Below are positions 1,829-23,848 of a stretch of DNA of 64,000 bases, in pieces (the stretch's first letter is position 1; each line of letters begins with the position of its first letter). Under the pieces are notes generated by a model, which searched no databases, was not told where the DNA came from, and saw nothing but the letters and a program-made list of their open reading frames with translations. The DNA comes from Antedon mediterranea. Taxonomy: Eukaryota > Animalia > Echinodermata. Made by a program: the position numbers and the translations under genes. The stretch covers positions 26,461,175 through 26,525,174 of the forward strand of contig NC_092677.1 in assembly GCF_964355755.1 (NCBI RefSeq), given 5' to 3'.

Positions 1829-1893
1829 TATGTGAAATTCACCCTTCGAGTCAAGATATCCTGTAACTTCTTGGGTTATCTTTGTTTCCAGCT
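1829..1893 (-). pseudogene. Relic fragment of a family A last exon
   Basis: Nucleotide similarity to about 2851-2920. Reads AGNKD.../EVTGYLDSKGEFHI with a frameshift. Confidence 0.65.
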
Positions 1894-2809
1894 AAACTAT
1901 AGAATTGAGTAATTATAAAAGGTTGTTACACGTTTAGGCCTAATTACGGACAATTAAAGTGATCAATGTAGGCCTAATGCAAGATTTTTCAATTGCCGCA
2001 GCTGGTGTTTTTACGCCCAAAATGATTTATATTTCTAGAAATTAGTAGTCCGTCATTGCGTAATAAACTTTAAAACCTTACCTTTCATCTTACGCTTTTA
2101 CGATTTAATTCATGCATAGTTTAAAAATTGAAAACGTGAATAATATTAATAAAATAAGCGTTCGTGTACTGATGTGTTATAAATAAAAAGTAACATAATC
2201 ATAATCATACGATCGAAAGATTAATGGTTATTTATAATTTCAATGTAATTGTTTCCATTTTGTACATTTTTTACGATACAAAATTAATTATATTAATATT
2301 AATTTGTTAAGCAAACTAAATTATGGGACGTGGAAAACCATGCTACGTAGCCCTATGAAATGTTAATTAAACCGTCTTTATAATAACCGATGCCATTTAA
2401 TGTACACTTACAATAATTAATACAAAGTCAACAACATTTAACGAATTAACTTCTGGAATTAATCACATGATCATTTTACCCTCTCGTTGAAACTTGATTC
2501 TTCGTGAGCATGAAGCCATTGTTATACTTTAGTGTACTGTATTTTTAAAACAAAAAATGCGTATTTCAAAAGCATTTTAAAATCAAAATAAGAATTGAAT
2601 GAAATAGTTGACTCGTTTCGAAAACATTTACAGACATAAACGAATGGTTAGTATTTAAGTTTAGGCCTAACAGTGGTGTATCCGAAGGAAAAAAAAAGAA
2701 AAAAAATTGGCTTTATGGCCTCTACTGGTAACAGAATGATATTCCGTTATCATGAAATGTCTTTATTTTTTGTTTCATTCAATCTAACCTATTTTGGAAA
2801 TAAGTGTTT

Positions 2810-3818
2810 TCAAGAGATTATGCATTGACTAGAGGAATAATTCTTTTCTTGTATGTGGAATTCTCCCTTCGAGTCAACATAACCTATAACTTGTTTTTGT
2901 TTATCTTTATTCCCAGCTGAAATGTGAAACGAAGAATCACCCTGACCGTAAAGAGACATTTTAACGTCAGTGTAACTTGTTACTTTATCAGCCTCCAACT
3001 TGGTCATGAACGCTTGTAGTAGTCTCCGTAGTCCAGCCTGTTCTTTTGTTTGTTCAGCTCCTTCATTTCCACAGAGTTTTAGAATGATATTTGCCAGTGC
3101 ACGTTTGTTTATCTCGTCGACCCGAAACTTAAAGATAAAAACTAGTTGTTATAAATCATGTTAATATTGCTGTTACGGTATAGGCCACCTCAAAATCTAC
3201 TAAGAAAAAAAATGTTATGATGTGATATCTACGACCTTCGCTTTCTATGACTATAACTGTGTACGGAATATTTTCAGTTTCACTAGATACTATTTTACAT
3301 CAAAAAGGAGATAATTATTTAATAATAAAAATTTACTTTGCATTGCATATTCCGACAATTTGCACAAATAATGTATAATAATGTTCCTTTAATCAAATTA
3401 AAACTATTAAAATATAAGAAACCAAGGTTATTTTATTATAACATTACACTGAGTAGGACTAATGTTTATTAAGACCTACCATAACTTCTTCGTGTTTTTT
3501 TTCGTTCTGGTGAACCATTATAGTGGACTTGACACGATTCGTTTTGAATGTAACTTGTTCCCCATTCAAACCACAGAATATTAGTTTCAAGTTAGAAAAA
3601 CCTTTTTTTCGAAAAGAACTTGTAAACTTTGTCCAGTATGATAGAAGATTTGTCCAATCTTCAGAAGGATTATCACGTAAGTCAGCGGACAAGAATTCGT
3701 CAAAAACACCAGACATAAATCTGTGGCTTTCTTCGTCGGCAAGACACGAACAATTTGGAATGTCTATCTTCAACTATAAAAATGCAATATAGCTACTTTA
3801 GAGAACAAACAATACATT

Positions 3819-3886
<68 letters not shown>

Positions 3887-5416
3887 ACGGTACTTCACAA
3901 AGACTAATATTTATTATTTGTGTTTATTTACAGATAAGCATTAATGAAAACATATAGGCCTACGGTAATAATGATAAATGTTTGCTAAAGACCGTAGATT
4001 AACATTTAGACTTAAACACAATACTCTAACCAATAAATGTATTTAATTAATTAAACTTAAGTTAATATAAATGTTATTACATTGACATTTATTCTTCTTT
4101 TACTTGGTATCTTCATCTTCAACGTGTACTCGGCAACTGTCGCTTTGCACACATTGGTATTCGATGTAATCGTACCGACGCTGTCTCCAGTTTTTGCTCG
4201 AAGAAAATCTGCGCACTTGTTTGCAAATTGATTCAATTCTTTGTTCGTTCGATGGTTTATTTGATCATTTGCAAATTTCTTAAGTTTACTGGCACTGAAT
4301 TCACTTTCTTTGGGTTCCTATGAAAAATAGTGAAGGGGTAATGGCGTATTTATTTTACTAATTGCGAACAATGCCAAATTAAGAAAGGTAAAAAGGTAAA
4401 GGTCCCGTATTTATTCAAGTCTGAACATAGGGTAACGAGCTGTTAGGAGCTCATTTTACTAAGCCTATGTATATTATGTGGTATCATTAACAGCTAATTA
4501 GACTGGGAGTTGTCGGGAATTGATCCCAGGTCTCTCTGTATGACAGTCAAGTGTCCTAACCACTAATAAAATAGACCTAAAAAGCAAAAACCCAAGCTGA
4601 AAATATAATGTGGGGATTAATCTAATCATGTGATAATTAAATACTGCCCTCTATAGGTGTTACTACCCCCTATAATTGTAACAGTCTTTTTCAAATGATT
4701 TGCTTTCTTTTGGATTCATGAACCGGTCAAGGAAGCAGATAATTTTGTCTCTTACTTAATTAAAGATCTGATTAAAAGGACCATACTGATCTCTATTGTT
4801 ATGCTAAAAACAAATGAAAACCAAATACACCACCGGATCGTGGTAAAGGTGATAAAAGGCGTGTCTTTCCTTTTGTGTTGTCGTCCACATCCTTACATAT
4901 ATTTAAAGATGTAGGCCTATTGTCCCCCCTTTTTTGCTGAATATGAAATTTTAATGTCGCATAATAGTTATCCACTTTGATTATTGATAAAAAAATGATT
5001 TACAGTACTTGAAAAACTGTAATTTAAAGCAAGCCAACCAATGGTGCCAGCCAATGGGTTTTTGGTTGAAATCAACCATTTATTTTGTCATTTTGTAGGC
5101 ATAATTAGTGAAAACATTTTTTTTTGTTTCCACCACACAAACATAGGCCTACACATTGAAATAAATAACATAATATACAACCTAATAATATTAGGATGTA
5201 AAAAAAGTATATAAAACGTCTACAGTTTAGGATAGTATGCATATTCAAGATAATAAAATCTCTAATTTAAAAAAATCTCATTTCTACCAATATTGTACAT
5301 GTCAGTAAATTACGACGATGTTCAATCATAATTATAAATTAAAAGTGGAAATAAAACAATTTTTTTTTTACCTTATTGTCAGCAAATGATTTGGTATTGT
5401 GCATTTTCTGAGGCAT
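2810..5416 (-). CDS. Family A gene A1: unknown ~297-aa three-module protein with C-terminal CaaX (CIIS)
   Basis: Coding exons 5372-5416 (MPQKMHNTKSFADNK), 4081-4317 (EPKESEF...FANKCADFLRAKTGDSVGTITS...KRRINVN), 3480-3773 (LKIDIPNCSCLAD...NLKLIFCG...HEEVM) and 2810-3127 (FRVDEINKR...SLYGQGDSSFHISAG...VIGYVDSKGEF...CIIS*). All introns are GT-AG and phase 0, and the frame is open throughout. Exons 2 and 4 align with paralog A4. Confidence 0.8.
3823..3882. repeat. (TA)n microsatellite
   Basis: About 30 TA units. Confidence 0.97.
4384..4565 (-). mobile_element. tRNA-derived SINE remnant
   Basis: Minus strand reads tagtggttaggacacttgac...cctgggatcaattcccg (A/B-box-like) with a (TTTTACCT)n-like tail. 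Confidence 0.6.
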
Positions 5417-5650
5417 TGTCGTAGAGAACTAGGCTCACCTGAACTAAAAGAAGAATTGAGTGAAGCCTACTGTGTGCCAATAAATTTATGATAGATTATA
5501 TCCTCCAGAAAGTAAATATTCAATATTTGTAATGACATGACCAGCGAGTGAGATTACACTGAAAACAGATAATCGGACATAATATATTAATATGATCGAG
5601 TTCACGTCATTTCACACAAGACTGACAACTCGGCAGACAACATCTCTGCT
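5417..5650. promoter_or_regulatory. Putative bidirectional promoter between A1 and B1
   Basis: The A1 ATG (5416, minus) and the first B1 donor (5698, plus) are under 300 bp apart and divergent. Positional inference only. Confidence 0.45.
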
Positions 5651-6177
5651 GCTAAACATTGTTCTTTTGAGCTGAATCACCAAAAACAATTAAAAGTGTA
5701 AGTAATTTTTTAATTTGTTTATTACAGGCTATACAATTAATTTGGTCACAATGATGGACGGCTCTAAAGTAAAATGTACATGATTTTGCAAATCTAAGCT
5801 GTGTCTATGAGGAGAGGCGACAGTGACGGACTCGTTTGAGTCTATGTCGTTCCTCAAAGTGCTTTCCCGATTGCGTAGTAGAGAATGCAACAGTACCGTA
5901 TAACGCGAACTGGGTCTACAGTTAAAATTTAAGTAGATCGATTTTTTACCATAATCAATATTTACTGTAAAATGTTGAACTAATCCGAATTAGTTCCGCC
6001 CCTAATTTCTTTACGAATAATTTAGCAGCCAGGTAAAATCTGAACTAGATGATACCCTGTCACAATCTGAGGTTCGGTGTCCCTGCATATAAGTTTTAAG
6101 TTTGATATTTATTATTGTCTATATTTTGTTTAGAAGAAACCTGTATAATCGGTTACTGTCCAGCACTATCATCAAAC

Positions 6178-6938
6178 ATGAAAACGGTAGGGTATTACGG
6201 ACAATTTCTATTGTCAATTCTGTCAAAAAGAATCTAGTTGTTATTCCCAGTGGCATCCACTGCAACATGAAGGAGTGAGATATTCTGATTCAAATCCTGA
6301 CATGTCATATAAGCCTAAAAAGAATTTCCAGTTACAAAAATGGATTCGCGCTGAATCATAAAATAAACTCTGAATCATAAAATAAACTCTAAAATCTAAA
6401 CCCTAACCCTAAAATCTGAAATAAAACTCTAAAAAATAAAATGTATAAAAATACATTTTCTTCACAGCTAATTTTACTTCCGTGCTTTTAACAGCTAATT
6501 TAGAAAAACATCTTGATTGATTACATAATAATTACAATAATAATAGACTTACGTCCTTATTTTATTTTAAAGATAAAGAAAAATTGTGGGGATGAGATTA
6601 CAGTTGGAGACATTCATAAATTACAAATAAAAGATCAAAGATATAGTGATATGGCTATAGATCTGATAATGGTCAAAGGCAAATGGATGTCTAATGCAGA
6701 AATTGCTATAGCTTCAGAGCCATCATACTTATTATATACAGGCCAACGTAGTAATAAATTTGGGGTTTATAGACGCGAAGAAGAGAATTACAAATGGACT
6801 ACAAGGAGAAGGGGTTGGCGGTTATGGCTGGACGACAAAATATGGAAACCGGCGAAAGATTTTGCCGTTAAAAGAGCGCTACCAGCTGTGGCGGGATTTA
6901 TTGGCCTCAGTCTTTTGAATGCTATTGAAGACTTGTGA
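6178..6938 (+). CDS. Family B gene B1: unknown ~124-aa protein
   Basis: Probable non-coding exon ending at 5697 (GTAAGT donor). Exon 6134-6186 carries ATG AAA ACG (MKT) before a GTAGGG donor. Exon 6573-6938 follows a ttttaaAG acceptor in phase 0: IKKNCGDEITVGDIHKL...YTGQRSNKFGVY...RRRGWRLWLDDKIW...ALPAVAGFIGLSLLNAIEDL*. Same 3-codon start-exon layout as B3. Confidence 0.78.
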
Positions 6939-8319
6939 TTTATTTTTGTATTATAGAATGTGTAATTAGAATTAACCATGAATACAAATATATGATTTAT
7001 GTACCAAAAGAATAGGACATATGCCTATATAATAATAAATTGGAGAGGCATAGAAATCTTTCTCTCTCTTTCTCAATGTTTTAAACGTGCTTTTAGTTAT
7101 TTTTTTCTTAGTTAATTTTTATAATAATTTACAAACTGAGCTCCGGGAATGCAAAATTGAAAATACATTTAAACTTAAATTGAAAAGATAGGCCTATTAA
7201 ACTTTTAGCCTTCGATATATTTGTTTTAAACGATGATTGTTATTGTCAATTGTTGCAATGTATTTAATTATTAAACTAGTTTTAACATGAAGCGAGATAA
7301 GTAGAAATAAGTGGAAACTTAATGGAATACCTGAAGTGAAAAGTCATCATTAACTCATATATGGGAGATATTAAATATATAAACAGATAAGAATGAGATA
7401 GTGCTTGTGATATTATAGTCATATTGTACAATATTTTTACTGCTAAAAAGTTAGAAACAAAAGGGTGCTTTCACATAGGGCGTATGATTACAAATGAATA
7501 AATATTGAATTAATAAATTATGAAATCAAACAGGAGCTGTTGTGTCGTTCAATTATCTGGAACTTTGAATTTGAATCAACGAATCCTATGACGTGATTTG
7601 CATCAGGTGATTTACCCGCCACCACATGGAATGACGTATCATCTTTACCACAGAGAGAAAGTTTAGTGTTTTCCCAACAAATGTTATTTCGTTTCTCCAG
7701 TGCAGTTATACACGCCTGAATGAGTCGTCTGAGGGCGGCTTATTCAGTTGTTTGACTGACGCCCTCATTACCGAGTAACCAAAGCATGATTCGACCCAAA
7801 GTACGTTTATTAATTGCATCAACTTCAAACTACAGAAAGAAAAAAAGGTTTGTAATATTCGATATGTAAATGTCATGATTATAACAGAATTGTTTAGAAT
7901 TCAGAATTAAAATAATCAGTTTAAAAATAATTATAGACTATTTCAACCAATATTGTCATGTGAAACGCCGCGTTTATCAAATGTTTAACTTACAACAATC
8001 TCCCCTTGTAGTTTAGCATTCAAAACTGCAGCAATAGTTGTTTTAATCGTACCGCATTTTATCTTGATTCTTTCTTCATACTCTCCATATAATCTCAACT
8101 GTGCAGTACGCATTGCTTCTGGTCTTACATTCTTGCTGAACTTTGACAAACTTTCCAGAAGTTCTTTCCAAGTTAAAAATCCAGACGCTGATAATTTGTT
8201 CAATAGTGACGATATACCTCGTTCGCAAGCTGGATCAGAGAGTCTATTTACTTCCACAGTTACCTGTTGAATGAATAGTAGGCTACATCAAAGCATGAAT
8301 ATATCATGTACAGGTAGGC

Positions 8320-8400
8320 CTATAACCCGGTAATATCGTAGGCCTAACCCGGTAATATCGTAGGCCTAACCCGGTAATACCGTAGGCCTAACTCGGTACT
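8320..8400. repeat. 22-bp tandem repeat
   Basis: aacccggtaatatcgtaggcct x3-4. Confidence 0.85.
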
Positions 8401-9239
8401 CAATTCCAAATTAAAACAATGGGAACGTAGGCCACGACGGGTCCTTCGAAGGCACTCCAATATCCCATGGATGATTTGACTAATTTAAGTAATTTTTATT
8501 ATTATACCTTAGGCCTATAATCATTTTTCCACTGACCAAGGTATAACCAATGCAGGACCTCTAGTTGGTCAAGAGAAAGGGAGATCGCACAGGCGTACAA
8601 ATAACTTATTTGTATCGAATTAACTACAGCAAAAATAATATATATACGTATAGTAGAGTGAGCCACATTAACTAGTTTAAATCAAACATGACATAAAATA
8701 TGACTTTCCATTTAATTAACCATTCTTGAGTAGTCCCATAGTGGCAATTGAGATATGCTTAACAGAGAATGCGAGTATCTAGACCTACTAGTGACGTAAC
8801 GAGAAGTCACGCATGAGTACCCAGTGCGTTTATCCTTGCTCGATAATTACACGCAGTGTTTTATGCGCGCCGTCTCTTGCGTTACAAAAATTGAACTCGA
8901 ATAAAAAGGAAGACGTCATCACAAAATGAATTCCACCTCAAAATCTAAAGCTCTGTCTACACTATCAAACTAGTTTGACAACAAAAGTGTGATGTGCCCA
9001 AATATGGTAGTGATATGCCCAAACATGGTAGTGATATGCCCAAACATGGTAGTGATATGACATCATCATGGATAATAATGAGGGCGCTATGTAAATGAAG
9101 ACGTATAGTTACTGAGCTCCGTCAAAGCTAAATCTTATCGAACTCCCAAAAGTAAGTTAAAGGATGAAATAAACTGAACGTAAGTTTTAAACAGCTTCTA
9201 CAATCAAATAAAAGTAAAATAAGAAGTCGATTGTAAAAA

Positions 9240-10051
9240 ATGAGTGCTACTAGAGCGAAATCTAAACAAATATCTGAAACTACTGAGGCAACGCCTATGC
9301 CACGTCAGCTTAAAGTTCCCGCGACTACCGACTTGAAGACTGACATCTTCTGAAATTAAGGCCCTGCGGAAAGATCTAAAAGAGATGTTTGTTGATATTA
9401 ATAAAAAAAATCGAAGATGGAATATCGTCGATCAAATCCAATCAACAAGTACTAATTGAAAGAATAACAAAAGTGGAAGAAACACAACGTATTATGGACC
9501 AGTCATTGGAATATTACACAACATCCACTACGGAAACTCAAGCGAGTGGAAGTAGATTAAATACACGTATTGACAACATTGAAACAGAACTGAAGGAGAA
9601 AAATAAGCAAATTAGTAACCTAGAAGGGGATATTCATAGAATGGAAAGATATTCAAGAGGATTTAATTTACGATTTGGAGGAATAAATGAAGAAGACAAC
9701 GAAAATACACTAGATAAATTAAATACACTTATAAGCGATAAACTACACTTGAAGGATATTAACATTGAAAACGCCCATAGAACCGGTAAGCAGACCAGAG
9801 GAGACCAAAAACCTAGGCAAATAATTGCTAAATTTATCTATAGGCCAGAACGAAACGAGGTTCTTAAGAAGGTAAATTCACTGAAAAATATAGATTTTTA
9901 TGCAATGGAGGACCTTACAGCAGCAGATGCCAAGAAGAAACGTGAGTACCGAGACATAATGTTGAAAGCATACAATGAAGGAAGACATCCTGTATTTAGA
10001 AATGGATCATTATATATAGATGGGAGACTATACCGTGAACCTACAAAGTGA
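9240..10051 (+). pseudogene. LINE ORF1 (L1-type coiled-coil + RRM, Transposase_22-like), frameshifted near the 5' end
   Basis: ATG at 9240. ORF 9389-10051 has a coiled coil followed by NLRFGGINEE, IENAHRTG, PRQIIAKF and EDLT motifs typical of L1-like ORF1p. Confidence 0.8.
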
Positions 10052-10389
10052 CCAGACCACACTCTGTTAGTAAGAAACACACTTATTTAACATGAGATGG
10101 TATTTATGTAATTTGGACAAAATACTATCCATGTCTTGTTATTATACACAGCCCCACATTGCTGCTGTGAACTGTTGCATACAGTGCATTCATATAAGTT
10201 GGGGTTGTTTATAAAATTGTATATTTTGTATTACTACATTCATTAATAAGGGGTCACGGTAAAATAAAATACTTTATGACGGGTAGCTAATGTACAGATA
10301 TAGCAAATAAGGTTATATTTATTATCAAATATTTCTTTTGTCATTAGGCCCTATAATTAACTGATATTTATTTATATTAACGAAATTAT

Positions 10390-13140
10390 ATGTTTTCAAT
10401 TCTAAATATTGATAATTTTAATTACGAAGACGAAAATACAACCGCATTTAACTATAAGGAAAACTATTACTTTAGTATTGATACATTTAAATCCACGTTC
10501 AGTCAAACGTCAACTAATAGTTTTTCTATGTTTGCATTAAATTGTAGAAGTATTGTTAACAAATTTGAAGAATTTAAAAATTATGTATCCTCTCTCGATT
10601 TTGAATTTAATGTAATAGGACTTACTGAAACTTGGCTTTCAAGCAAACATCACCTTGGTTTATATACACTTCCAAACTATACACCTATCTTTAAAAACAG
10701 AGAAACCCAGACAGGGGGATGTGTAGCATTGTACATACACTCAAATATATCATATCAAATAAGAAATGACTTGTCTGCTATGATAAACGAGAGAGAGTGC
10801 ATTATAATTGAATTAAAAAATAATGATAAATCAATTATATGTGGAATAATCTACAGGCCCCCTAAAGCCCATATTCCAACATTTAATAATCAACTTAGTG
10901 AATTAGTGCACATGATAAACAATGAAAATAAAAAGGCATACCTAATGGGTGACTTTAACCTAGATCTACAAAAATATAACTGTGACAATAATGTTCAAAC
11001 TCACGTAGACAACATGCTAACAGAATCTTTCATTCCACTAGTCAATAAACCCAATCGAATCATAAAAGATACCGCAACAGTAATTGACAATATTTATACA
11101 AATTATCAGGAATTCCAAAATATTAACACAGGGATATTAGTTAACGACATATCTGACCACTTTGCAGTTTTCTGCATGGATGATTCAGAAAATTATTCAT
11201 TACCACGATCAGAAAAATTTATAATAAAAAGAAGCTATACTGATCAACAAAAACGGCAATTTAGACTTGAATTACAGGGCTATGATTGGCAATATGTAAC
11301 TAACATTGAATATGAAAATGAATCATATAAACGTTTCTCAGATTCTTTAAAAACAATGATAGATAAGCATTTCCCACTAAAAAGAGTTAGGTTAAAAGTA
11401 GATACAATTAAATCCCCGTGGATAACATATGGAATTCAAAAATCTCTTTGTACCAAAAATAAATTATACATCAAATATAAACAGAAACCAACAGATATAA
11501 ATAAATCTAAATATAAGAAATACAAAAATAAGTTAACATCAATAATAAGAGAAAGAAAAACTACTTATTACAAAAATGAATTTGAAAAGCACAAGAGTAA
11601 TATAAAGAAAACATGGGGTGTCATAAACTCATTATTAGGTAGGAAGAAACATCAAGACATGCCTCACAAAATGAAAATCAACTCCCATCAACTTAATGAC
11701 CCAACATCCATAGCCAATGCGTTTAACACATACTTTATAAATATAGGTGACCAAATGACAGGTGATGATAACCGTAATAGTAACACCGAATATAAAATAC
11801 AACATGACATTTTGAATTCAATGTTTTTTAGAGCTGTATCCGAGTTCGATATCATTAAATACATTAATGACTTAAATGTAAATAAGTCAAGTGGTTGTGA
11901 TGACATTGGTACCTTTTATATAAAAAATAACTCGGATATACTGGCTATATAAATATAGTTTATTTTATATCATTGTTGTTACTTTGGGAGTACGGAACCT
12001 GAACTCTTGTTATAGTGATTAGGTTCACTTTTAGGTTCCTGCCTACTCCCTTAGTTTCTGTGTTTTGTTTGTTTGTAACTGGTTTTTGGCAATAAATAAT
12101 AATAATAATAAACCGTTATCTCATATAATCAATGTATCCCTTCAATCGGGTGTATTTCCTTGTCAACTAAAAATTGCTAAAACAATTCCTGTGTATAAAA
12201 AAGGAGCAAGGGAGAACATAGAAAATTATAGACCGATATCGATATTACCATGTATATCTAAGGTATTTGAAAGGGTCGTATATGACCAAACAATCGCTTT
12301 TTTGTGTAAATATGAAATGTTACATGAATCTCAATATGGATTCAGGGCAGGTCATTCAACTAACCACGCCCTCCTACAAGTCCTTGATAAAATAACAACA
12401 GCCGTTGACAACAAGCAGTTTATGATTGGCGTATTTTTGGATTTATCCAAGGCGTCCGATTCGATAGATCATGAATTATTGCTCACAAAATTGCCCCATT
12501 ATGGAATAAGAGGCGTGGTTCTTGATTGGTACCGTAGCTACCTTAGAGAAAGACAACAATTCGTACAAATTGGGAAGTGTCAGTCTGTAACCAAAATAAT
12601 AAAACAAGGCGTTCCACAAGGGTCAATCCTTGGACCCCTGCTGTTTTTGATATTCATAAATGACATGTTTTCTGTAAGTAACGTCGTTGATTTAATAATG
12701 TTTGCAGATGATACGAATATGTTTTTACAACACAATGATATCGTCACTGCCTTTACAATAATGACAAATGAACTAAATAAAATTGAGAAATGGTGTAAAA
12801 CTAATAGATTAAATATTAATACAACCAAGACTACGTATATGTTATTTAGTGGAAAGAATACCAACATTGACACATCCCAATTTGTACTTTCAATAAATAG
12901 AGTTTCAATAGATAGAGTACCATATACTAAATTTCTCGGTGTCATCATTGATGAGAAACTGAACTTTAGACACCATACAAATGCAGTTTCTTGTATGGAA
13001 TCAACTTATAAGAAATATAAGAGAGAGTGAAAATATATCAATATTTAAAAAACTATTACTAAATAAATGCATTAATAGTTATAAAGAAACAATATATCTT
13101 TGCGAAAACAACATTTGTAAAATATGTCTAACATTAACTT
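10390..13140 (+). pseudogene. LINE ORF2: APE endonuclease + reverse transcriptase, disrupted
   Basis: APE motifs LNCRSI, GLTETWL, IYRPP, MGDFN, IDNI, SDH. RT motifs YRPISILP, QYGFR, FLDLSKA(S)DSIDH, GVPQGSILGPLLF, FADD. Interrupted by an insertion at about 11948-12110 and by an internal deletion near 12990, after which the C-terminal LVWNQL...FKKLLL segment follows in another frame. Confidence 0.9.
11948..12110 (+). mobile_element. 5'-truncated 3' tail of a second retroelement inserted in LINE ORF2
   Basis: Removing it restores ILA-KPLSHIIN. It ends in AATAAA and a (TAA)n tail. Confidence 0.7.
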
Positions 13141-13849
13141 AATTAATTACATTTTCGTATATATTCTGAGACTGTGAGGTATACATATATATTATATTAT
13201 AGTACGTTGTATTTTCGTTCATTTATTTACTACATGAAAACATTTTTGTAATATATTTGTAAATTTATATTTTAAGTTAGGGTGCCACAGATTAAAAGCT
13301 TTGCTTGCTTGTGGTTACCCTGTTTTTCACACTTTATTGTACTTAATTTTTTATTTATATTTTTATGAATGTTGTGTGAAAAATAAAAGAATCAATCAAT
13401 CAATCAATATGGGCACATAATGTTTGATAGTATAGACAAGGGTTAAGCTTAACTTACGGTTGTTTCAACGCCTCCGTCTTTTGTCTCTCTTAGCTTCAGT
13501 TTACATTCGTTAGATACAGCTTTGATCACAAACAGCTGGGTGGGGAGGGTAACATTATAGGCCTATAATCATGGAAACGAGAATTGTAACGAAAATATTT
13601 TTCAAACTGTATGGCATCTCTACATATAGAGAAAAATATACAGAAAATTCTGGTCTAGAAAAGTTGGATGGCAATTTGTCCCCTTTCGGGTGGTGATATC
13701 CCCCCTCCTGCCACCGGACTAATAACCCATCTAAAATATATCGCACGTGATTTAGGCCTAGATTAATTTCCTTATTTTTGAGAGAAGTTGCAAGGCGCTG
13801 AATTCTGTTTCCAAACAGTACAGTTTTGTTCCTCCCACTGATGCCAGTG

Positions 13850-14056
13850 GCAGTCTTCTCTAGCATCCAAATATATGCTGGGTTCGACTGTTTTTAACCC
13901 CTCCTCCCACCCGGCCCCAGAGAGCAGAGTGGTTTCAGTCACTGTCAGTCGCATCCAAGAGGCAGTCTTCTCTAGCGTCCAAATATATACTGGGTCCGAC
14001 TGTTTTTAACCCCCCTCCCACCCGGCCCCAGAGAGCAGAGTGCAGGTTTCAGTCAC
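13850..14056. repeat. ~120-bp tandem duplication
   Basis: ggcagtcttctctagc...cccagagagcagagtg...gtttcagtcac occurs twice. Confidence 0.8.
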
Positions 14057-14411
14057 ATGGTTTTAAAATACTATCCTGCCCTCAACGTTTAAATTTAGTT
14101 AGACTGTACGCCAATTTGTCCTTACGCCAATTTTTGTCCTTACGCTAATTTTTGTCCTTTCGGCAATTTAACCATACGGCAATTTGTTCATACGGCAATG
14201 TGTGCGTTTGTTGTCCGTACGGCAATATTTGTTTTTCACACGATGAATTATGTCTTTAACGCCATTTGTTTGGCTTACGGGAGCGAAATTGTTCGTACAG
14301 CAACGTTTGTCTATTTTGGCCCTAATGGCCGCCCATATTTGTTTGGCTTACGGGAGCGGAATTGTTCGTACAGCAAGGTTTGTCTATTTTGGCCTTAATG
14401 GCCGCCCATAC

Positions 14412-14574
14412 GGTAGAGCTAATAAATTTGGGATTTATAAACGCGGAGGCGTGTACACATAATAGTACAAGGAGTAGAGGTTGGCGGTTATGGCTGATGG
14501 ACAACGTATGGAAACCGGCGAAAGAGTTTTTCTTTAAAAGAGCGATACCCGCTGTGGGTATGAGACACGAATAA
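14412..14574 (+). pseudogene. Family B paralog B1' (3' fragment, frameshifted)
   Basis: GRANKFGIYKRGGVYT* then, in another frame, STRSRGWRLWLMDNVWKPAKEFFFKRAIPAVG, matching B1. Downstream 14585-15420 duplicates the B1 3' region and the A2 last exon (about 6960-7860). Confidence 0.8.
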
Positions 14575-15105
14575 AAAAAAACTTTAAATACTAATATTTG
14601 ATTTATAATGTACCAAAAGAACAGGACATAATATATAGTGAATTCGACAGGCATGGAAATCTTTCTCTGTTTATGTTTTAAAAGTGTTTTTAGTTATATT
14701 TTTTCTATTTTTATAATAATTTAAACTGAGCTCCGGGAATGCAAAATTGAAAATACATTGAAAAGATATATTTTAAACTTTTAGCCTTCGATATATTTGT
14801 TTTAAACGATGATTGTTATTGTTAATTGCTGCAATGTATTTAATTATTAAACTAGTTTTAACATGAAGCGAGATAAGAAGAAATAAGTGGAAACTATTCC
14901 TCACATAGAATACCAGAGGTGAAAAGTCATCATTAACTCATATATGGGAGATATTAAGTATATAAACAGATAAGAATGAGATAGTGCTTGTGATATTATA
15001 GTCATATTGTACAATATTTTTAATTTACTGCTAAAAAGTTAGAAACAAAAAGGTGCTTTCACACAGGGCGTATGATTACAAATGAATAAATATTGAATTA
15101 ATAAA

Positions 15106-16103
15106 TTATGAAATCAAACAGGAGCTGTTGTGTCGTTCAATTATCTGGAACTCTGAATTTGAATCAACGAATCCTATGACGTGATTTGCATCAGGTGATT
15201 TACCCGCCACCACATGGAATGACGTATCATCTTTACCGTAGACCGAAAGTTTAGTGTTTTCCCAACAAATATTATTTCGTTTCTCCAGTGCACTTATACA
15301 CGCCTGAATGAGTCGTCTGAGGGCGGCTTGTTCAGTTGTTTGACTGACGCCCTCATTACCGAGTAACCAAAGCATGATTCGACCCAAAGTACTTTTATTA
15401 ATTTCATCAACTTCAAACTGTAATAAGAAAAGGTTTTAAATATTTGATATGTAGGCCTAAATGTAAATACACGTTTAGAAGAAAAAGAATCATTTAAAAA
15501 AAAGACTTAGTATTTAATGTAACATGCATTGCGCCGCAATGAGTTTATCAAAATAACGTGCGCTTTAAGTGTTAATATTACATAGCCTATGTAAATACGT
15601 GAACGTGATTGGTTGAAACTGCATTACATGACTACCGCTGCGAGGATCGTAATATAATATATCCTCGAGTACGATGATATTGACTGGGTAATTTTCGCGT
15701 AATTATCGTGTCCCTGTCATTTAACATATAAAATCCAGCCAATTCTTGAGTACGATGATATTGACTGTGTAATTTTCGTGTGGCATGCAACACTCGCGGT
15801 TGGCGGTATATAAACAAAAGTCAACTACTGAGACTTGAACTCGCGAAGATTTTTCCACACCATTACAAGACAACGTTTTACAAGCCGCGCTACGCAACTT
15901 GCTTTGATGAAATTAATCAACTAATTTAAAAACTCTGTATAATGTTAACTTACTACAATCTCCCCTTGTTCTTTATCATTTAAAACTGCAGCAATAGTTG
16001 TTTTAATCGTCCTGCATTTTATCTTGATTCTTTCGTCATACTCTCCATATAATATCAACTGTGCAGTACGCATTGCTTCTGGTCTTACATTATTGCTGAA
16101 CTT
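15106..16103 (-). pseudogene. Family A gene A3 (5'-truncated)
   Basis: Intact last exon 15106-15417 (ends SSCLIS*). The penultimate exon 15954-16103 matches A4 20212 onward, but identity stops abruptly at 16103. Confidence 0.8.
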
Positions 16104-17937
16104 GGTTGGTGTGCTGTCGCCACGGTCCAGCGAGATCACCTTGAGAGGTATGAGGCTGTCGTCAAGACCCAGCAGGAGATCAGAACGTAGAGAAATACAA
16201 AGACTCCGCCAATGCGTATAAAGAGGTTTGTAAATATTTGTTCCCAAATAATTAATTTATCTACGGTTATTCTTATTTATCTGAACGCTTTATAAAGACG
16301 TGTTCAGATACTTTTTATAAAGCGTTATGTTTGTTTATAGTTTTTTTAACATTGTGTATTTTCGTACAAACAATAACATTTACCGTATATCTTTCGTTCT
16401 TCAATCTGTCTACCAGACGTCCAAAAAAGCCATGGAGGTCCTTAAAGAAAACACCAAAGCCGAACGTAAAGAACATGCCAGAAAAACGCGTGAGGCTGAA
16501 GCCAACGCAAAGGCAGAACGTGAAGTAAAAGCCAAGAGACTTAGAGCAGAACGTGAAGAACATGCCAGAAGAATGCATGAGGCTGAAGCCAAAGCCCAGG
16601 CCGCACGTGAAGAATATGCCAGACGAATACGCGAGGCAGAAGCCGCAGCAGCTGCTGCTGCTGCTGCTGCCCAGGGCAGAACGTGAAGAGCGTGCCAGAC
16701 AAAAACGCGAGGCCGAAGCCGCAGCTGCTGCCAGGGCAGAACGTAAAGAGCGTGCCAGACGAAAACGCGAGGCCGAAGCCGCAGCTGCTGCCAGGGCAGA
16801 GCGTGAAGCATTTGCCAGAATACGCGAGGACGCTGCCAGGGAAGCTGCTGCTGCTGCTGCTGCCACGGCAGAACGTGAAGAGCGTGCCAGACAAAAACGC
16901 GAGGCCGAAGCCGCAGCTGCTGCCAGTGCAGAACGTAAAGAGCGTGCCAGACGAGAACGCGAGGCCGAAGCCGCAGCTGCTGCCAGGGCAGAACGTGAAG
17001 CATTTGCCAGAATACGCGAGGACGCTGCCAGGGAAGCTGCTGCTGCTGCTGCTGCCACGGCAGAACGTGAAGAGCGTGCCAGACAAAAACGCGAGGCCGA
17101 AGCCGCAGCTGCTGTCAGTGCAGAACGTAAAGAGCGTGCGTGCCAGACGAGAACGCGAGGCCGAAGCCGCAGCTGCTGCCAGGGCAGAACGTGAAGCATT
17201 TGCCAGAATACGCGAGGCCCGTGCCAGGGGAGCTGCTGCCAGGGCAGCACATGAAGCTAGAGCTGAAGCCGAACGAAGGGTTTGTACAAAATGTATTTCC
17301 CTTAATTATATCTGTCAGAATGTTTAAATTCCACTTAGTTGAGCAAAAATATATTTTAAGTGTACGTACTCTGAACCCTTATGTAAACTTTTATAACTAT
17401 TTTATAATTTCTTTTACTAATAATACAATTATTGATCATTATAAGTCCAGTGTCATTAAAAACAGTTCGCTATGACTACCATGATTATATTATTGTAGTT
17501 TAATTTTAAAATACCTTGTATATTGATTGATTTTTCACAATGTCATGAAACTTTAATTTAATAATAATAATTTTTTTTTTATTTTAACACAGAGAAGAGT
17601 GTCAAAACACATTAATTGTTATAGAAAGATTACGATTGGGCACGCTAATGATCTACAGATAGATGATGATTTGAAGGATGCTACAAAGCAACTGATTAGC
17701 CAATTACCGGATCATGCTCTTAAAGATGCATTAATTGATATAAGGGCAACATCAACCAGCCCAGCAAGCTCACTCTATGCAGGGGGAAAAACTAATAAAT
17801 TTGTCATTTATAAAAGTGGCGGAGACATTGATTTTGAGACGAGGGCAAAAAGTTGGCGGCTTTGGTTCCACACCGGATTAGTCTGGGTAAGAAATCTCTT
17901 CAGAAGTGACGAAAATCAAGAAGCTATTTGCTATTAA
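16104..17937 (+). pseudogene. Family B gene B2 with long E/R/A-rich helical repeat; 5'-truncated, two frameshifts
   Basis: Degenerate exon about 16104-16225. Exon 16417-17279 (TSKKAMEVLKE...AEREERARQKREAEAAAAAR repeats) has a +1 shift near 16671 and a +4 shift near 17137. Phase-0 exon 17593-17937 (RRVSKHINCYRKITIGHANDLQID...YAGGKTNKFVIY...RAKSWRLWF...) is homologous to B1/B3. The frameshifts could be assembly errors within the repeat. Confidence 0.7.
16676..17260 (+). repeat. Coding tandem repeat: 60/60/72-bp units in a 192-bp higher-order repeat
   Basis: acgtgaagagcgtgccagacaaaaacgc recurs at 16681, 16873 and 17065. Confidence 0.9.
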
Positions 17938-18335
17938 ACGGCCTTTACCTCAATGCCAAAATAATACATAGGTCATAGATTGTTATTGATAGATATTGTT
18001 TAAAATAATTAGCATTAATTTAGTACTACGTAAAATGGATTAATTTTCTAAATTATTCAAGTGCAAAAATTATAACCTACACAAAACATAATTTGGTAAA
18101 AATGTTAACAGAATTAACAAATAAATATGATACATAATACATTGTATAGTTTTTGCAAGTAAAATAATATTAATAGCAATAACATTAACATAACATATTA
18201 AACCTTATTAATTTTAAACTTATATTAGTAGTATAACATGTTAAGGTCATTATTGTTCTGATTTTGCTTTACTATTATTATTAGATTATACTCAGTTAAA
18301 GAGCTTTCATATTATGCGTTGATTTCCCTTTCCAA

Positions 18336-18635
18336 TTATTTTTTGGTTAATGTATACGTAATTATATTTTCTATATTTTCGAAATAAAAGATTGAATGAA
18401 TTCCTGGTTTGAATGAATATTCCTGGTTTTGAATGAACTTTATTTCGATTGAAATTGTGTAGATTGATCTTTTGACTGAAGTATGACGTTTATTACCACA
18501 GAATACTATCGATAAGCCTGATCTGTGCAGAAACCACGGGGTGTTGATTTTCTCATTAAATGCCATAGGGCTGGCAAAAAAAAATCCATCTATTAGACAA
18601 GAAACTAGCTGTAAGAATTTAGGCACGAACCATAT
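18336..18635 (-). pseudogene. Possible orphan relic exon related to family A module 2
   Basis: After a tatAG acceptor, in frame: IWFVPKFLQLVSCLID...SGLSIVFCG...IKFIQNQE, versus A1 exon 3 LKIDIPNCSCLAD...SNLKLIFCG...IMVHQNEK. Confidence 0.4.
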
Positions 18636-19361
18636 CTATACTCTTTAAAATGATCTAAACCCCTCGTATAAAATAAATTGTTATTTCATAAAATATGAAT
18701 AGGCCTACTGATTGTGTTGATGCAGGCCATAAAGTTTTCGTTTAACTAGAACCATCGTACTAACAAAATTCTTTTCTTTATTGTTACACTCTGTATGATG
18801 TTTCTTCTTTTGGTAAAAAACATTTGAAATTTCAAACTTTTATTTTGATATCATTGGCATCTTTAAACGGAAAATAATTGTTACAATTAGCAATATAATG
18901 TGCGATATAAAGTTCATAGCCAGCACCCTTTGTCTCACAAGGGCTGCAAATATTTGATCAGTGCTCAAAGTCCGCATAAGTTGGGGACGCCAAATGCCTC
19001 TCTGTACATGCGGGACCCAGGGGTCAAAACCGTATTTTGAGAGAGTTTTAAGCGACTTAAGAGCAGAGCCATATATATAAATATGGCTCTGCTTAGGAGA
19101 GGTTAAATTAGTTTTTTATGGTACATTTTACAGGGATATTTATTGAAAATGTACCCGTTTTGCTGTTTCATTTGAAAACCATTCTTTTATTTGAATTTTT
19201 AAAGAAAATTGGATAAATTATGTCACAAATTGTTCCATTTTCAGAACTACCTATATGACATAGGGCATAGACAATTTAGGTTGTAATGTATGCCTATGTA
19301 TTGTTCTCTTTCTGGCTGCAGACCAATCCGTAGTTTTGTACGTTCATAATGTGCAAAATTA

Positions 19362-22009
19362 TTACGAAATTAAACAGGAGCTGTTGTGCCGCTCAATTAT
19401 CTGGAATTCTGAATTTGAATCAACGAATCCTATGACGTGCTTACGATCACGTGATTTACCCGCCACCACATGGAATGACGTATCATCTTTACCATAGAGA
19501 GAAAGTTTAGTGTTTTCCCAACAAATGTTATTTCGTTTCTCCAGTGCACTTATACACGCCTGAATGAGTCGTCTGAGGGCGGCTTGTTCAGTTGTTTGAC
19601 TGACGCCCTCATTACCGAGTAACCAAAGCATGATTCGACCCAAAGTACGTTTATTAATTTCATCAACTTCAAACTGTAATAAGAAAAGGTTTTAAATATT
19701 TGATATGTAAATGTAAATACACGTTTAGAAGAAAAAGAATCATTTAAAAAAAAAGACTTAGCATTTAATGTAACATGCATTGCGCCGCAATGAGTTTATC
19801 AAAATAACGTGCGCTTTAAGTGTTAATATTACATAGCCTATGTAAATACGTGAACGCGATTGGTTGAAACTGCATTACATGACTACCGCTGCGAGGATCG
19901 TAAATCATTATATCCTCGAGTACGATGATATTGCCTGGGTAATTTTCGCGTAATTATCGTGTCCCTGTCATTTAACATATAAAATCCAGCAAATTCTTGA
20001 GTAGGCCTACGATGATATTGACTGTGTAATTTTCGTGTGGCATGCAACACTCGCGGTTGGCGGTATATAAACAAAAGTCATCTACTGAGACTTGAACTCG
20101 CGAAGATTTTTCCACACCATTTACAAGACAACGTTTTACAAGCCGCGCTACGCAACTTGCTTTGATGAAATTAATCAACTAATTTAAAAACTCTGTATAA
20201 TGTTAACTTACTACAATCTCCCCTTGTTCTTTATCATTTAAAACTGCAGCAATAGTTGTTTTAATCGTCCTGCATTTTATCTTGATTCTCTCGTCATACT
20301 CTCCATATAATATCAACTGTGCAGTACGCATTGCTTCTGGTCTTACATTATTGCTGAACTTTGACCAACTTTCCAGAAGTTCTTTCCCAGTTAAAAATCC
20401 AGACGCTGACAGTTTGTTCAAAAGTGACGATATGCGTCGTTCGCAAGCTGGATCAGAGAGTCTATTTACTTCCACAGTTACCTGTTGAATCATGAATAAT
20501 ACAAATCAAAATATATAATGTAGGCCTTCCCGATAATATTCCAAGTTAAAACAATGGGAATTTAGGCCACGACGGGTCAGTTGAAGGCACTCCCATATCG
20601 GATGGCTGATTTTAAGTAATTTGTATTATTAAAAATCATTACAATCATTTTTCCACTTACCCAAGGTATAAACAAGGCCGGACCACTATAGTCGCCCAAA
20701 AGAAGAGAGATCGTACAGACGTACAAATAACTTATTGTTTATCGAATGCAAAAATAAACCATGCGCCGTATAGTAGCCACATTAATTAGTTTAAATCGAA
20801 CTATCGATTTATCGAATAAAATATAATGACTTTCCTTTTAATAATTAACCATTCTTGAATAGTCCCATGGTGGCAATAGAGATATGCTTAACATACTTTT
20901 CAGAGGATGCGAGGCCTACTAGTGAAGTAACGAGAAGTCATGCATGAGTACCCAGCGCGTTTATCCTTGCTCGATAATTACACGCAGTGTTTTATGCGCG
21001 CCGTCTCTTGCGTTACACTGATAATATACACATTCCCAATTTGGTATTGAAATATAAATTATTATTTTAAACTGAATTATACAGTTATCTTGAAATGAGC
21101 TCGCATAAAAAAGAAGTCATCACCAGAAAATGAATTCCACCTCAAAATCTAAAGACCTGTCTACACTATCAAACTAGTTTGACAACAAAAGTGTGATGTG
21201 CCTAAATATGGTAGTGATATGTCCCGATATGGTAGTGATATGACATCATAATGTCCATATATGGGCACATCACATTTTTTGTCACATAATGTTTGATAGT
21301 GTAGACAATGCTTACGGTTGTTTTAACGCCTCCGTCTTTTGTCTCTCTTAGCTTCAGTTTACATTCATTCGATACAGCTTTGATCACAAACAGTTCAACT
21401 TTGTTGTACGATTCCAATGTTCCTTTACCAATGCCATTGTCTGTCTCCTCGCATATCCAATCTGCGCATGCGTGCGCGTATTTTCGTTGCTTCAATCTGG
21501 TATCTTTGAAACACGAATCACGTCTTAACTTTTGAAATAGCTTTTCAATTGATGATTCGAGTAACAATCTGGTTAAAACATCAGTGACTTTATCAGAAAT
21601 CTGGAGATCAAATAAAATGTATGGAATTATTTTAAAGGCCTATACTAGGATGTCGCCAAAAGGTTTTTGAAGTTGGGTTGGAACCGTTTAACACATCTCA
21701 ATAGCTATATCTACAATATCAAACTTAATGAACATGTGATGTGCCTAAGTTTGATAGAGTTTAGACATAGAGCTTAATGAAAATCTTTTGCCTACGTATA
21801 CAATTCTCCTTCAAAACATGCCCTTTTTAAAAACTAAAGTTTACAGAGAGAAAATCTATACCAATATATTTTGGCTAACTGGGTTTAATTAGTGTTTTTT
21901 TGCCTACCTGTGACTCGTTCGTTGGTTGTTGGGCGTGGTCGTTGTAATTTGGCGTAGAACCTGTAAGCCACCGTAAACCATGTAAAGCCGACGGTATCCA
22001 CCCCGACAT
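19362..22009 (-). CDS. Family A gene A4: unknown ~322-aa three-module protein with C-terminal CaaX (CLIS)
   Basis: Coding exons 21908-22009 (MSGWIPSALHGLRWLTGS...), 21316-21600, 20212-20481 and 19362-19673. All introns are phase-0 GT-AG and the frame is open. Probable 5'-UTR exon ending at 22348. Confidence 0.82.
21153..21307. mobile_element. MITE family 1 (PIF/Harbinger-like)
   Basis: TIR ...tgtctacactatcaaac / gtttgatagtgtagaca, with an internal ccaaatatggtagtgatatg repeat. Confidence 0.85.
21701..21776. mobile_element. MITE family 1, degenerate short copy
   Basis: agctatatctacaatatcaaac...gtttgatagagtttagacatagagct. Confidence 0.55.
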
Positions 22010-22449
22010 AATTGTTATGTGCTGAACTAATTATGCCACTTTACAATCTAGAACAAAATAACAAATATCAAATTTTAAATTAATTAATTACATAAAACTA
22101 TTACACAGTTTAATATAAAAATGACTATGATAAATAGGCCTACGGTATCGTTATTGAGGAAGTACGCCTATAAACACGCAACGCCGCAATGACAATACTT
22201 AAATAGTAGGGTAGTGTATCTTAAATATTTCTTACATTACATTCCTATTTTGAACTATTTCAGTTTCATCTAAAATGAAGATGAAAACCAAAGCTTTGTT
22301 CCTTATAAGTTTAAAAATTATAATCAACATGTTAAAATATATTTTACCTTTCTTATGACGATTTTAGCCCAAAACAATCGCTCGTTTGATGTACGAATCT
22401 TTCCAAAATGTATTATTCCTGTGAATAATTCAGCGTAAATATTTCTTAT

Positions 22450-22800
22450 CATTCGAAGAAGCTAGTGTTGCGATGAGCAAGAATACCGAAGGCGTTAACG
22501 AATTCCCGTGGTTCAAAAACTCATTTGCCAATGCGCAACCAATCGTTCACGATGCGTCGTTAAACGCGATGAATCGAACACCCGATGAAAGAATTTCAAA
22601 TTACTTAGGATAAATTGGCAACGAATTATCTTGAGATGAGGCTCATTGGGAATTAAATGACTCTTCTTAACACTTTCAAAAATTCATCAATCATCATTCT
22701 TTAATTCTCATGACGTTTTATAGTCTTGAACAATATTGAATCAATAATACAATTACCATTTCACTAATAAGGTTGAAATGAACCAATTATTTGAATCTTT
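22450..22800. promoter_or_regulatory. Putative bidirectional promoter between A4 and B3
   Basis: Divergent first-exon donors at 22347 (minus) and 22848 (plus), 500 bp apart, with a locally CpG-richer interval. Positional inference only. Confidence 0.45.
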
Positions 22801-23190
22801 CGTTTGAACGTTGAAAACATTCATACTTTTGCAGTCTTTCCGAAAAGGTAAGTACTAACAAAATATTAACATTGTTAATTATTTTAAATAATTGTAAAAT
22901 GATGGTATTTTGAATGTTTCATCACCGTAATCTCTGGAAAGTCTTCAAATAGTTAAAATGTTTATAACTGTTTAATTATAAGTTTAGTTTGGTATTTTAA
23001 ACTCCATGCATTATAGTAGGTACTGTTGATAAAATACATAAAGGCAGTGTAGTGTCAGATAGTTAGAATGTACTTTGTCATTAACACTAAACACACTAAT
23101 AGTTCGATGATTAAATGAATGCATGTGCGCTGCTAAACATCTGTTTTGTTGTTTTTTTTATATTGCAGTAAATGCGAGGCAGATCAAAGT

Positions 23191-23848
23191 ATGGCTGAGG
23201 TAAATATATCGAAAAAACAATATCAACATTTAATAAAGTTTAGTAGGGTACACCGCATATCGGTGAATGTTTCCCGATACAAAAAAAGCTGCATCGAAAC
23301 GTTTTACAGGCGATGTGTATATAGTTGTAGTAAACGTTATTACATTAAATTCTGTTTTCAGATGAATAAAAACAAATCCAAATGAATTTTATTTTGTTTT
23401 CTAGCCTAATCAACCGATCGACGCCGCTGTGACGGTAATAGATTGCGGAGAAGAGGTGACGTTTGGAGACGTTCACCGTCTCCGAGCTACAATCGGAAAC
23501 GAAAACGACGACAGCAATAAACTATTAGACGTGGCGTTTAATTTCGTAGCCAAAGAACCAAAATGGATTTTCAAAGACGCTGAAATTGCATTTTCGATGC
23601 CGAATCACTGCTACATCATGCATTCTGGGAAAAGAACCAATCAGTATGTTATCCTGATCGGAGAATCTGGACAAGCCGAGGTAAGACTTCGGGAACGAGG
23701 CTGGAAATTATTTATGCGGGATCAAGCTGTAGCTATCTGGAACTGGGCTTGGGAGAATCAAGGCACCATCATAGGCCTGGCTCAACTTATATCTATCCTT
23801 GTTGGCCGAAGAGAGGCAATTGAATTCAGAGAAAATACATCCAGTTAA
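23191..23848 (+). CDS. Family B gene B3: unknown ~150-aa protein
   Basis: Non-coding exon ending at 22847 (GTAAGT). Exon 23169-23199 carries ATG GCT GAG (MAE). Exon 23405-23848 in phase 0: PNQPIDAAVTVIDCGEEVTFGDVHRL...HSGKRTNQYVI...RERGWKLFMRD...IIGLAQLISILVGRR...*. Confidence 0.8.

Follow-up and report, generated by a model that had tools for sequence, protein, structure and literature searches.

Head-to-head pairs of homologous genes that share a short intergenic region and encode proteins of different architectures are known from the plant paired NLRs (RRS1/RPS4, RGA4/RGA5, and Pik-1/Pik-2; available part of PMC9528088), and the silkmoth chorion A and B genes are likewise arranged in tandem as divergent pairs, whose members belong to a single superfamily and lie about 0.3 kb from each other, with pseudogenes among them (PMC4639761, in the sections available). 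A layout of this kind was found in a 64,000-nucleotide stretch of the genome of the crinoid Antedon mediterranea (assembly GCF_964355755.1, contig NC_092677.1, positions 26,461,175 to 26,525,174), hereafter called the window, in which genes of two types, A and B, alternate. Profile comparison shows A and B to be paralogues whose building block is a single uncatalogued alpha/beta domain.

The domain common to A and B

Three phase-0 exons of 79 to 105 codons are present in each A gene, and an A protein carries three copies of the domain and a CaaX box; B carries one copy and a hydrophobic tail. The initial annotation had assigned A and B to two separate protein families, a view that has to be abandoned, because an alignment of 55 B domains (those of the B-search matches plus the window) matched A module 3 in hhalign with a probability of 96 and an E value of 2.7e-9. 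Module 2 was matched with a probability of 72 (E, 3.4e-5) and module 1 with a probability of 3.4 (E, 0.013). After 11 crinoid-type rows were dropped, the 44 domains left gave probabilities of 96 for module 3 and 84 for module 2. None of 40 column shuffles reached the observed score for any of the three modules, and reversed modules stayed below 0.5. With three B sequences alone, the homology of A and B was not significant (6 of 60 shuffles); it is with the 55 domains that it becomes so. Within A, modules 2 and 3 are mutual repeats (hhalign E, 0.0014; 0 of 60 shuffles), and module 1 is only weakly assigned to the shared domain. Module 3 is the most conserved of the three (53 to 56% to A4) and module 1 the least (19 to 45%).

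AlphaFold models of A and B, which are of low confidence (predicted local distance difference test [pLDDT] values of 56 and 48), show a strand-helix-helix-strands unit in both. A module 3 and B align, weakly, to the same ranges of the RsbW chains 3ke6_B and 6m36_A (Z, 4.5 to 6.0), which supports a common topology of the two models and no family assignment. With regard to the Bergerat fold of a GHKL/RsbW-like ATPase, these Z scores lie below the VIA-align noise level of about 8, and neither N-box nor DxG motifs were seen by eye in the alignments. The best VIA-align scores were 5.9 for A and 6.4 for B, in weak rows with RsbW, ABBA prenyltransferases, beta-barrels, and CDC/MACPF chains, all of which were treated as noise. 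A dynein-light-chain-like fold, considered as a candidate, did not appear among the VIA-align rows listed.

The initial annotation had recognized neither family, and no housekeeping family was found for A or B in searches of Pfam, NCBIfam, PADLOC, or the PDB. Pfam gave no match at its cut-off for 14 exon products or six full proteins (five A and one B); this includes the chorion families for both sets and, for the full proteins, an NB-ARC/NACHT plus leucine-rich repeat (LRR) architecture, the 297 to 322 amino acids (aa) of A being filled by the three domain copies. NCBIfam and PADLOC returned nothing that reached the cut-off and nothing that recurred in two or more of the 23 members, and the best E values against PDB sequences were 0.38 for A and 0.24 and 0.055 for B. 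Foldseek found no PDB match at an E value of 0.001 with either model, and a Foldseek-type search of a viral library with the A model found none at the same value (best, 0.0047). There was no usable feature match in the ESM Atlas for A or B and no relative in the viral, metagenome, and prokaryote contigs; an 18-residue match at metagenome locus L001 was set aside. TRADD-N or NCOA6-type Pfam models matched none of 34 B-search proteins at an E value of 0.01 in a search with sequence models only, and the RRM-like fold of TRADD-N, which has an element order different from the one predicted here (pLDDT, 48 to 56), was not among the structure-match rows listed. Twelve member accessions that were looked for are not mentioned in the open-licence main texts, a scope that leaves supplements and subscription journals aside, and the open-licence literature searched holds no report of echinoderm head-to-head immune gene pairs, the sole match concerning RAG.

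Intact pairs, relics, and relatives in Anneissia

Six-frame hidden Markov model (HMM) and tBLASTn scans gave the order A0 relic, A1, B1, A2, B1', A3, B2, A4, B3, with A-family exons confined to the minus strand and B-family exons to the plus strand, all within window positions 1811-23848:

1811..1896, minus strand: A0, relic of an A-gene 3' end, a ninth element beyond the range of the initial annotation (self-BLAST, 80% to 2843-2921; module-3 HMM i-E, 1.5e-4)
2810..5416, minus strand: A1, intact open reading frame (ORF) of 297 aa with three domain copies, ending in CIIS (coding exons 5416-5372, 4317-4081, 3773-3480, and 3127-2810)
5417..5697, no strand: A1/B1 divergent spacer between the A1 start codon and a predicted first donor of B1, a likely shared promoter
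6178..6938, plus strand: B1, intact ORF of 124 aa with one domain and a hydrophobic tail (3-codon exon 6178-6186 and exon 6573-6938)
7518..13535, minus strand: A2, headless A4-type copy, broken inside the module-1 exon at 13535, with an in-frame stop at 7742-7740
9080..13390 (limits approximate), plus strand: long interspersed nuclear element (LINE) retrotransposon inside an A2 intron, with ORF1, endonuclease, and reverse transcriptase (Pfam Exo_endo_phos, 1.5e-8; RVT_1, 9e-33)
14419..14557, plus strand: B1', headless, frameshifted fragment copied from B1, beginning mid-exon (82% nucleotide identity to 6752-6891)
15106..16103, minus strand: A3, headless A4-type copy, broken inside the module-2 exon at 16103, with a 3' flank in common with A2
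16104..17937, plus strand: B2, old divergent B paralogue and probably a pseudogene (domain exon 17593-17937; upstream Ala/Arg/Glu repeat exon with frame breaks at about 16417-17240)
19362..22367, minus strand: A4, intact gene for 322 aa, ending in CLIS (coding exons 22009-21908, 21600-21316, 20481-20212, and 19673-19362; noncoding first exon from 22348)
22368..22554, no strand: interval of about 190 bp that separates the A4 and B3 RNA contigs at their 5' ends, a likely bidirectional promoter
22555..24300, plus strand: B3, intact gene for 150 aa (noncoding exon to 22847, 3-codon coding exon 23191-23199, main exon 23405-23848; an RNA contig extends past 24300)

The alternation of eight elements, A on the minus and B on the plus strand, between 2810 and 23848 is as initially annotated. 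For a random order of four A and four B, strict alternation has a chance probability of 0.029, a value calculated for independent copies, which these are not.

Only two of the four annotated pairs can be kept. Head-to-head pairing stands for the intact A1/B1 and A4/B3, the only two of the four junctions that are likely promoters; at A2/B1' and A3/B2 the junctions are breakpoints between genes without 5' ends, A2, B1', A3, and B2 being headless or frameshifted. A1 (297 aa) and B1 (124 aa) have open frames and GT-AG phase-0 introns. A4 and B3 are identical to the Antedon mediterranea RefSeq proteins XP_071957707.1 (P0001 of the database set) and XP_071957712.1 (P0006), respectively. A1 and B1 were absent among the matches of the protein searches (the word-based A search for A1, the word-based and HMMER B searches for B1). 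B1 was recovered by a leave-one-out HMM (E, 1.4e-12), and A1 is 65% identical to its paralogue P0005 and 48% identical to P0003/P0004 of Anneissia. The contig of P0005 and of the triple-B protein P0008 is equal in size to that of A4 and B3. Over window positions 2867-3726, contigs from RNA-type and DNA runs (X5, X1, and X4) differ from the A1 exons by 10 to 15%, so further A1-type paralogues exist. A short shared head-to-head intergenic region is present at A4/B3 by RNA contigs, where the first-exon donors are 500 bp apart, and at A1/B1 by sequence only; no similarity was found between the two spacers.

Spliced transcripts were seen in run X5, which comes from a different sample, belongs to one study, and is an RNA run by guess. 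A 982-nucleotide contig skips the A4 introns 21600-21908 (CT..AC) and 22013-22348, with pieces at 20212-20477 and on a last exon; its differences of a few percent point to an allele or close paralogue of A4. Contigs of B3 carry a GT..AG joint from 22845 to 23167, and their loose end at 23199 fits the beginning of the main exon. The DNA run X2 had none of the A4/B3 splice joints. The A4 and B3 contigs lie about 190 bp apart at their 5' ends, and such contigs show neither starts nor levels. Transcription, presupposed by the initial annotation, is accordingly seen for A4-type and B3 genes in one RNA-type run; no joint for A1, B1, or B2 was among those listed for X5, which is no evidence of silence.

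The duplicated unit had been taken to be the pair. This is largely tenable for the old events and fails for the recent ones, in which A2, A3, and A4 are nearly identical and their neighbors B1', B2, and B3 are unlike, B1' being a copy of B1. The last exons of A2, A3, and A4 are 95 to 97% identical to each other and 55 to 56% identical to that of A1, and B1, B2, and B3 are identical at 39 to 48% of codon-aligned bases. The local score of B1' is 147 to B1, 37 to B2, and 17 to B3, and the 3' flanks of A2 and A3 score 704, against 19 to 24 for the other five comparisons. From the common flank of A2 and A3 and the origin of B1' from B1, the segment duplicated was the tail-to-tail junction of B1 and an A gene, the copying of which left a false head-to-head junction between the two headless relics A2 and B1'. 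B2 is 27 to 29% identical to B1 and B3 and is recovered by a leave-one-out HMM at an E value of 6.9e-9. As B2 is an old paralogue, and as the nonsynonymous divergence (dN) between A3 and A4 is 0.025 versus a synonymous divergence (dS) of 0.146, A3 and B2 may represent a third pair of old origin, from which a single deletion removed both 5' ends.

Proteins of this kind were sought in a protein library that holds one protein per 50% cluster. The word-based A search gave five A proteins (two from Antedon and three from Anneissia japonica) among 116 candidates. The word-based search with the B alignment found B3 alone among 1712 candidates and missed the Anneissia genes, so that its blanks mean little; HMMER, run with a B profile of three sequences, retrieved 34 proteins at an E value of 0.001, 20 of which were looked up. 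Two of the 34, P0025 and P0040, were false and were dropped, leaving 32 true matches. P0009 is Anneissia LOC117111682 (XP_033110551-2), and the number that follows belongs to the A4-type LOC117111683 (XP_033110554-7); the contig of the two has 1,624,706 bases. P0013 is LOC117113140 (XP_033112281), whose number comes immediately after that of the A1-type LOC117113139 (XP_033112280), with a contig of 1,206,221 bases for both. Consecutive LOC numbers imply adjacency by the usual behavior of NCBI annotation. LOC117111682 is the B3 orthologue (53% over 140 aa; support of 100/97 and 96/98 in two trees), LOC117111683 is the A4 orthologue (49% identity; 100/100), and P0013 is the best BLAST match of B1 outside the window (36%; E, 7e-13; next, 4e-12). 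In the A tree, the A1-type and the A4-type sequences form two clades (100/100; eight rows, midpoint root), and both Antedon and Anneissia are represented in each. Of the three A genes of Anneissia, two are preceded or followed by a B gene in locus number, and of the five B genes, two have a known A there. The pairing thus appears, by locus-number adjacency, to persist despite the divergence of its members, as initially claimed, and includes the A4/B3 orthologues; by these relationships the A/B pairing is old.

A remnant of one ancient inverted duplication, in which independently acting proteins are held together by a common promoter in a spacer too short to be broken, would also account for old pairs. 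A and B are paralogues, so that adjacency needs no functional cause; B genes without a known A occur, the recent duplications disregard the pair, and the two spacers are dissimilar. We nevertheless consider this explanation somewhat unlikely, since the adjacency of the cognate A4 and B3 appears to have been kept in two crinoid genera while the proteins diverged to about 50% identity, the partners retain different membrane signals, and both the multi-repeat and the single-plus-tail architectures recur in other deuterostomes.

Beyond the array, a multiexon RhoGAP gene, which we take to be ARHGAP32/33-like, borders the cluster on the right (window 26475-36518, minus strand; Pfam RhoGAP, 7.8e-17 and 4.6e-22 in two exons), and a DIRS-like retroelement lies at 49203-53738 on the plus strand, with a gag-like ORF, reverse transcriptase/RNase H with a weak Dam match, a tyrosine-recombinase-like ORF, and long overlapping open frames. 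The LINE in the A2 intron is high-copy in the DNA runs. A short palindromic element resembling a miniature inverted-repeat transposable element, of very high copy number, occurs at 8943-9070, at 21147-21313, and at about ten more sites up to 61169; one copy occupies an identical intron site in A2 and A4. At 35715-36383 and 37253-37713, intronic tandem repeats that are long and GAT-rich open spurious Asp/Ile-rich frames.

Deuterostome relatives and a candidate membrane-bound pair

Members of the domain family were found in crinoids, in Branchiostoma, and in the hemichordates Ptychodera and Saccoglossus, a range taken from the 20 of 34 matches looked up and possibly wider. The commonest architecture is a single domain plus tail. 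Two to six tandem domains occur in P0008, P0016, P0027, P0034, P0035, and P0037, with up to six repeats in hemichordates, and P0015, P0023, and P0030 combine a zinc ribbon with the domain, with or without a long helical region. The Ala/Arg/Glu tandem-repeat exon of B2 (16417-17240, plus strand) resembles the long helical regions that precede the domain in P0015 and P0030 of amphioxus. In Branchiostoma, P0012 carries a CARD (Pfam, 2e-15) followed by two domains, and P0039 and P0043 carry a TIR (Pfam, 3e-9 in P0039) and one domain; leave-one-out HMMs keep the domains of the CARD- and TIR-fused proteins at E values of 5e-69 and 6e-26. The TIR-fused Hypp3488 (P0043) and the domain-only Hypp3489 (P0014) of Branchiostoma lanceolatum have consecutive numbers and are possibly a second, independent two-gene unit of the shared domain.

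The initial annotation had predicted membrane-targeting C termini in both partners. For A this is upheld: all six full-length A proteins end in a CaaX sequence (CIIS, CLIS, or CIIL), so that by a motif conserved across the family A is a CaaX-type protein with predicted prenylation. CaaX prenylation is an established pathway. For B it is upheld in B1 and B3, which have hydrophobic tails, and not in B2, whose last exon as read has none. In the B-type tail, an amphipathic stretch that contains Trp precedes a hydrophobic one that is rich in Gly and Ala. A 15-residue Kyte-Doolittle mean of at least 1.0 within the last 55 residues was reached by 23 of 27 tail-class B relatives versus 0 of 6 multi-repeat relatives, classes that were assigned by eye and in which two of the six multi-repeat proteins end mid-domain.

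These features suggest that A and B act together at membranes, as a pair with a role in immunity or cell death; A, with its CaaX box and triple domain, would bind the tailed, single-domain B and control it. We hold this reading tentatively, as one that falls a little short of probable. The short divergent spacer would co-express the two proteins; prenylation would bring A to the cytosolic face of the membrane, the tail of B would insert in the membrane, and the two would meet there. Domains found as tandem repeats and behind TIR or CARD commonly assemble like with like, and by that habit A would bind B through like-with-like contacts, with the conserved module 3 as the likely contact and the variable module 1 as the likely input. 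B would be the membrane-acting output, which A would gate as an inhibitor or as a nucleating scaffold, two options that are indistinguishable here. In the amphioxus fusions, the signal upstream of this domain would come from TIR or CARD. The CARD and TIR fusions of B relatives fit an immune role, and the birth-and-death turnover seen by sequence comparison within the window is counted in favor of this reading.

Several observations weigh against the immune pair. CARD or TIR occurs in only 2 of the 32 true HMMER matches, and amphioxus shuffles TIR- and CARD-type domains widely (PMC2575513, available portion), so that the fusions are a lead only. The crinoid A and B proteins themselves are without an immune domain, no IRF or NF-kB-like motif was found in either spacer, and dN is below dS in module 3 and in the A2/A3/A4 comparisons, with no sign of positive selection. 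The recent A4-type copies arose without B3. In Anneissia, adjacency appears from accession order and orientation is not visible in the records; for three of the five B genes, no A is known from the contig, where the word-based search may have missed one, and no B was seen beside the third A gene, LOC117111706, where one could be hidden by the clustering of the library. The trees do not resolve B1 with LOC117113140, and the structure models are of low confidence.

Some of the same evidence would suit a co-expressed nonimmune heteromer, such as a membrane scaffold in secretory, gamete, or regenerating cells, organized like silkmoth chorion A/B. Divergent paralogues with a spacer of about 0.3 kb, a tandem array, and pseudogenes make a chorion-like layout (PMC4639761, in part), module 3 is under purifying selection, and the spliced contigs come from a run of unstated condition. 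We judge this alternative unlikely in view of the CARD and TIR fusions, the lineage-specific expansions in amphioxus, hemichordates, and crinoids, and the fast divergence of the B paralogues (27 to 31%); A, moreover, has a cytosolic CaaX signal, unlike the secreted chorion proteins. A selfish toxin-antidote element would likewise present tight linkage, turnover of copies, and a small protein whose hydrophobic tail is rich in Gly and Ala; B would be a membrane toxin passed to gametes or embryos, and A its linked antidote. That origin is very improbable: orthologous pairs appear to have survived in two genera, A and B are homologous to each other, and relatives of B exist without a known A and fused to CARD or TIR, whereas peel-1/zeel-1 are unrelated proteins at a polymorphic locus.

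If the immune reading of the pair is extended beyond crinoids, the shared domain would be a new like-with-like signaling module in the immunity of invertebrate deuterostomes. Its single-domain members, whose tail is amphipathic and rich in Gly and Ala, would be cell-death executioners of a new, membrane-damaging class. Copies fused to TIR or CARD would trigger them in amphioxus, and in crinoids a prenylated partner with three repeats, transcribed from the same promoter, would gate them. Such a system would be an animal counterpart of the plant paired receptors with an unknown fold as its basis. In this full form the proposal is speculative and unlikely to hold.

Comparison with known systems

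Invertebrate deuterostome death-fold and TIR proteins carry many unexplained partner domains. Here an uncatalogued domain, common to crinoids, hemichordates, and amphioxus and linked to TIR and CARD, comes with a predicted regulator and a predicted effector in a small, testable two-gene unit for which cognate and noncognate A/B controls exist from two species. Should B prove to act on membranes under the control of A, the pair would represent a new class of executioners and an animal case of immune genes in divergent pairs; otherwise, the locus still provides a new domain family and, with it, a conserved bidirectional pair of genes.

Unlike the plant paired NLRs, A and B are without NB-ARC/NACHT, LRR, or an integrated domain and are small (124 to 322 aa). 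The chorion proteins are secreted structural proteins encoded by dozens of pairs; here, there are two intact pairs with cytosolic membrane signals and no sequence relation to them. In fungal NLR/HET-S pairs and BCL-2-type regulator/effector sets, a membrane output is controlled through a module common to both partners, as proposed here, and in the fungal case the genes are neighbors. Unlike those sets, A and B match no HeLo, BCL-2, gasdermin, or amyloid-motif family, and their domain has a predicted alpha/beta fold. TRADD-N of marine invertebrates is likewise a small alpha/beta domain, expanded in amphioxus, hemichordates, and echinoderms and fused to death-fold domains (PMC8195603, available part), but it has an RRM-like fold and usually occurs singly between other domains, whereas the A/B domain has a predicted strand-helix-helix-strands order and is C-terminal or tandem. 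The domain is new to the libraries searched, and the gene layout is of a known kind.

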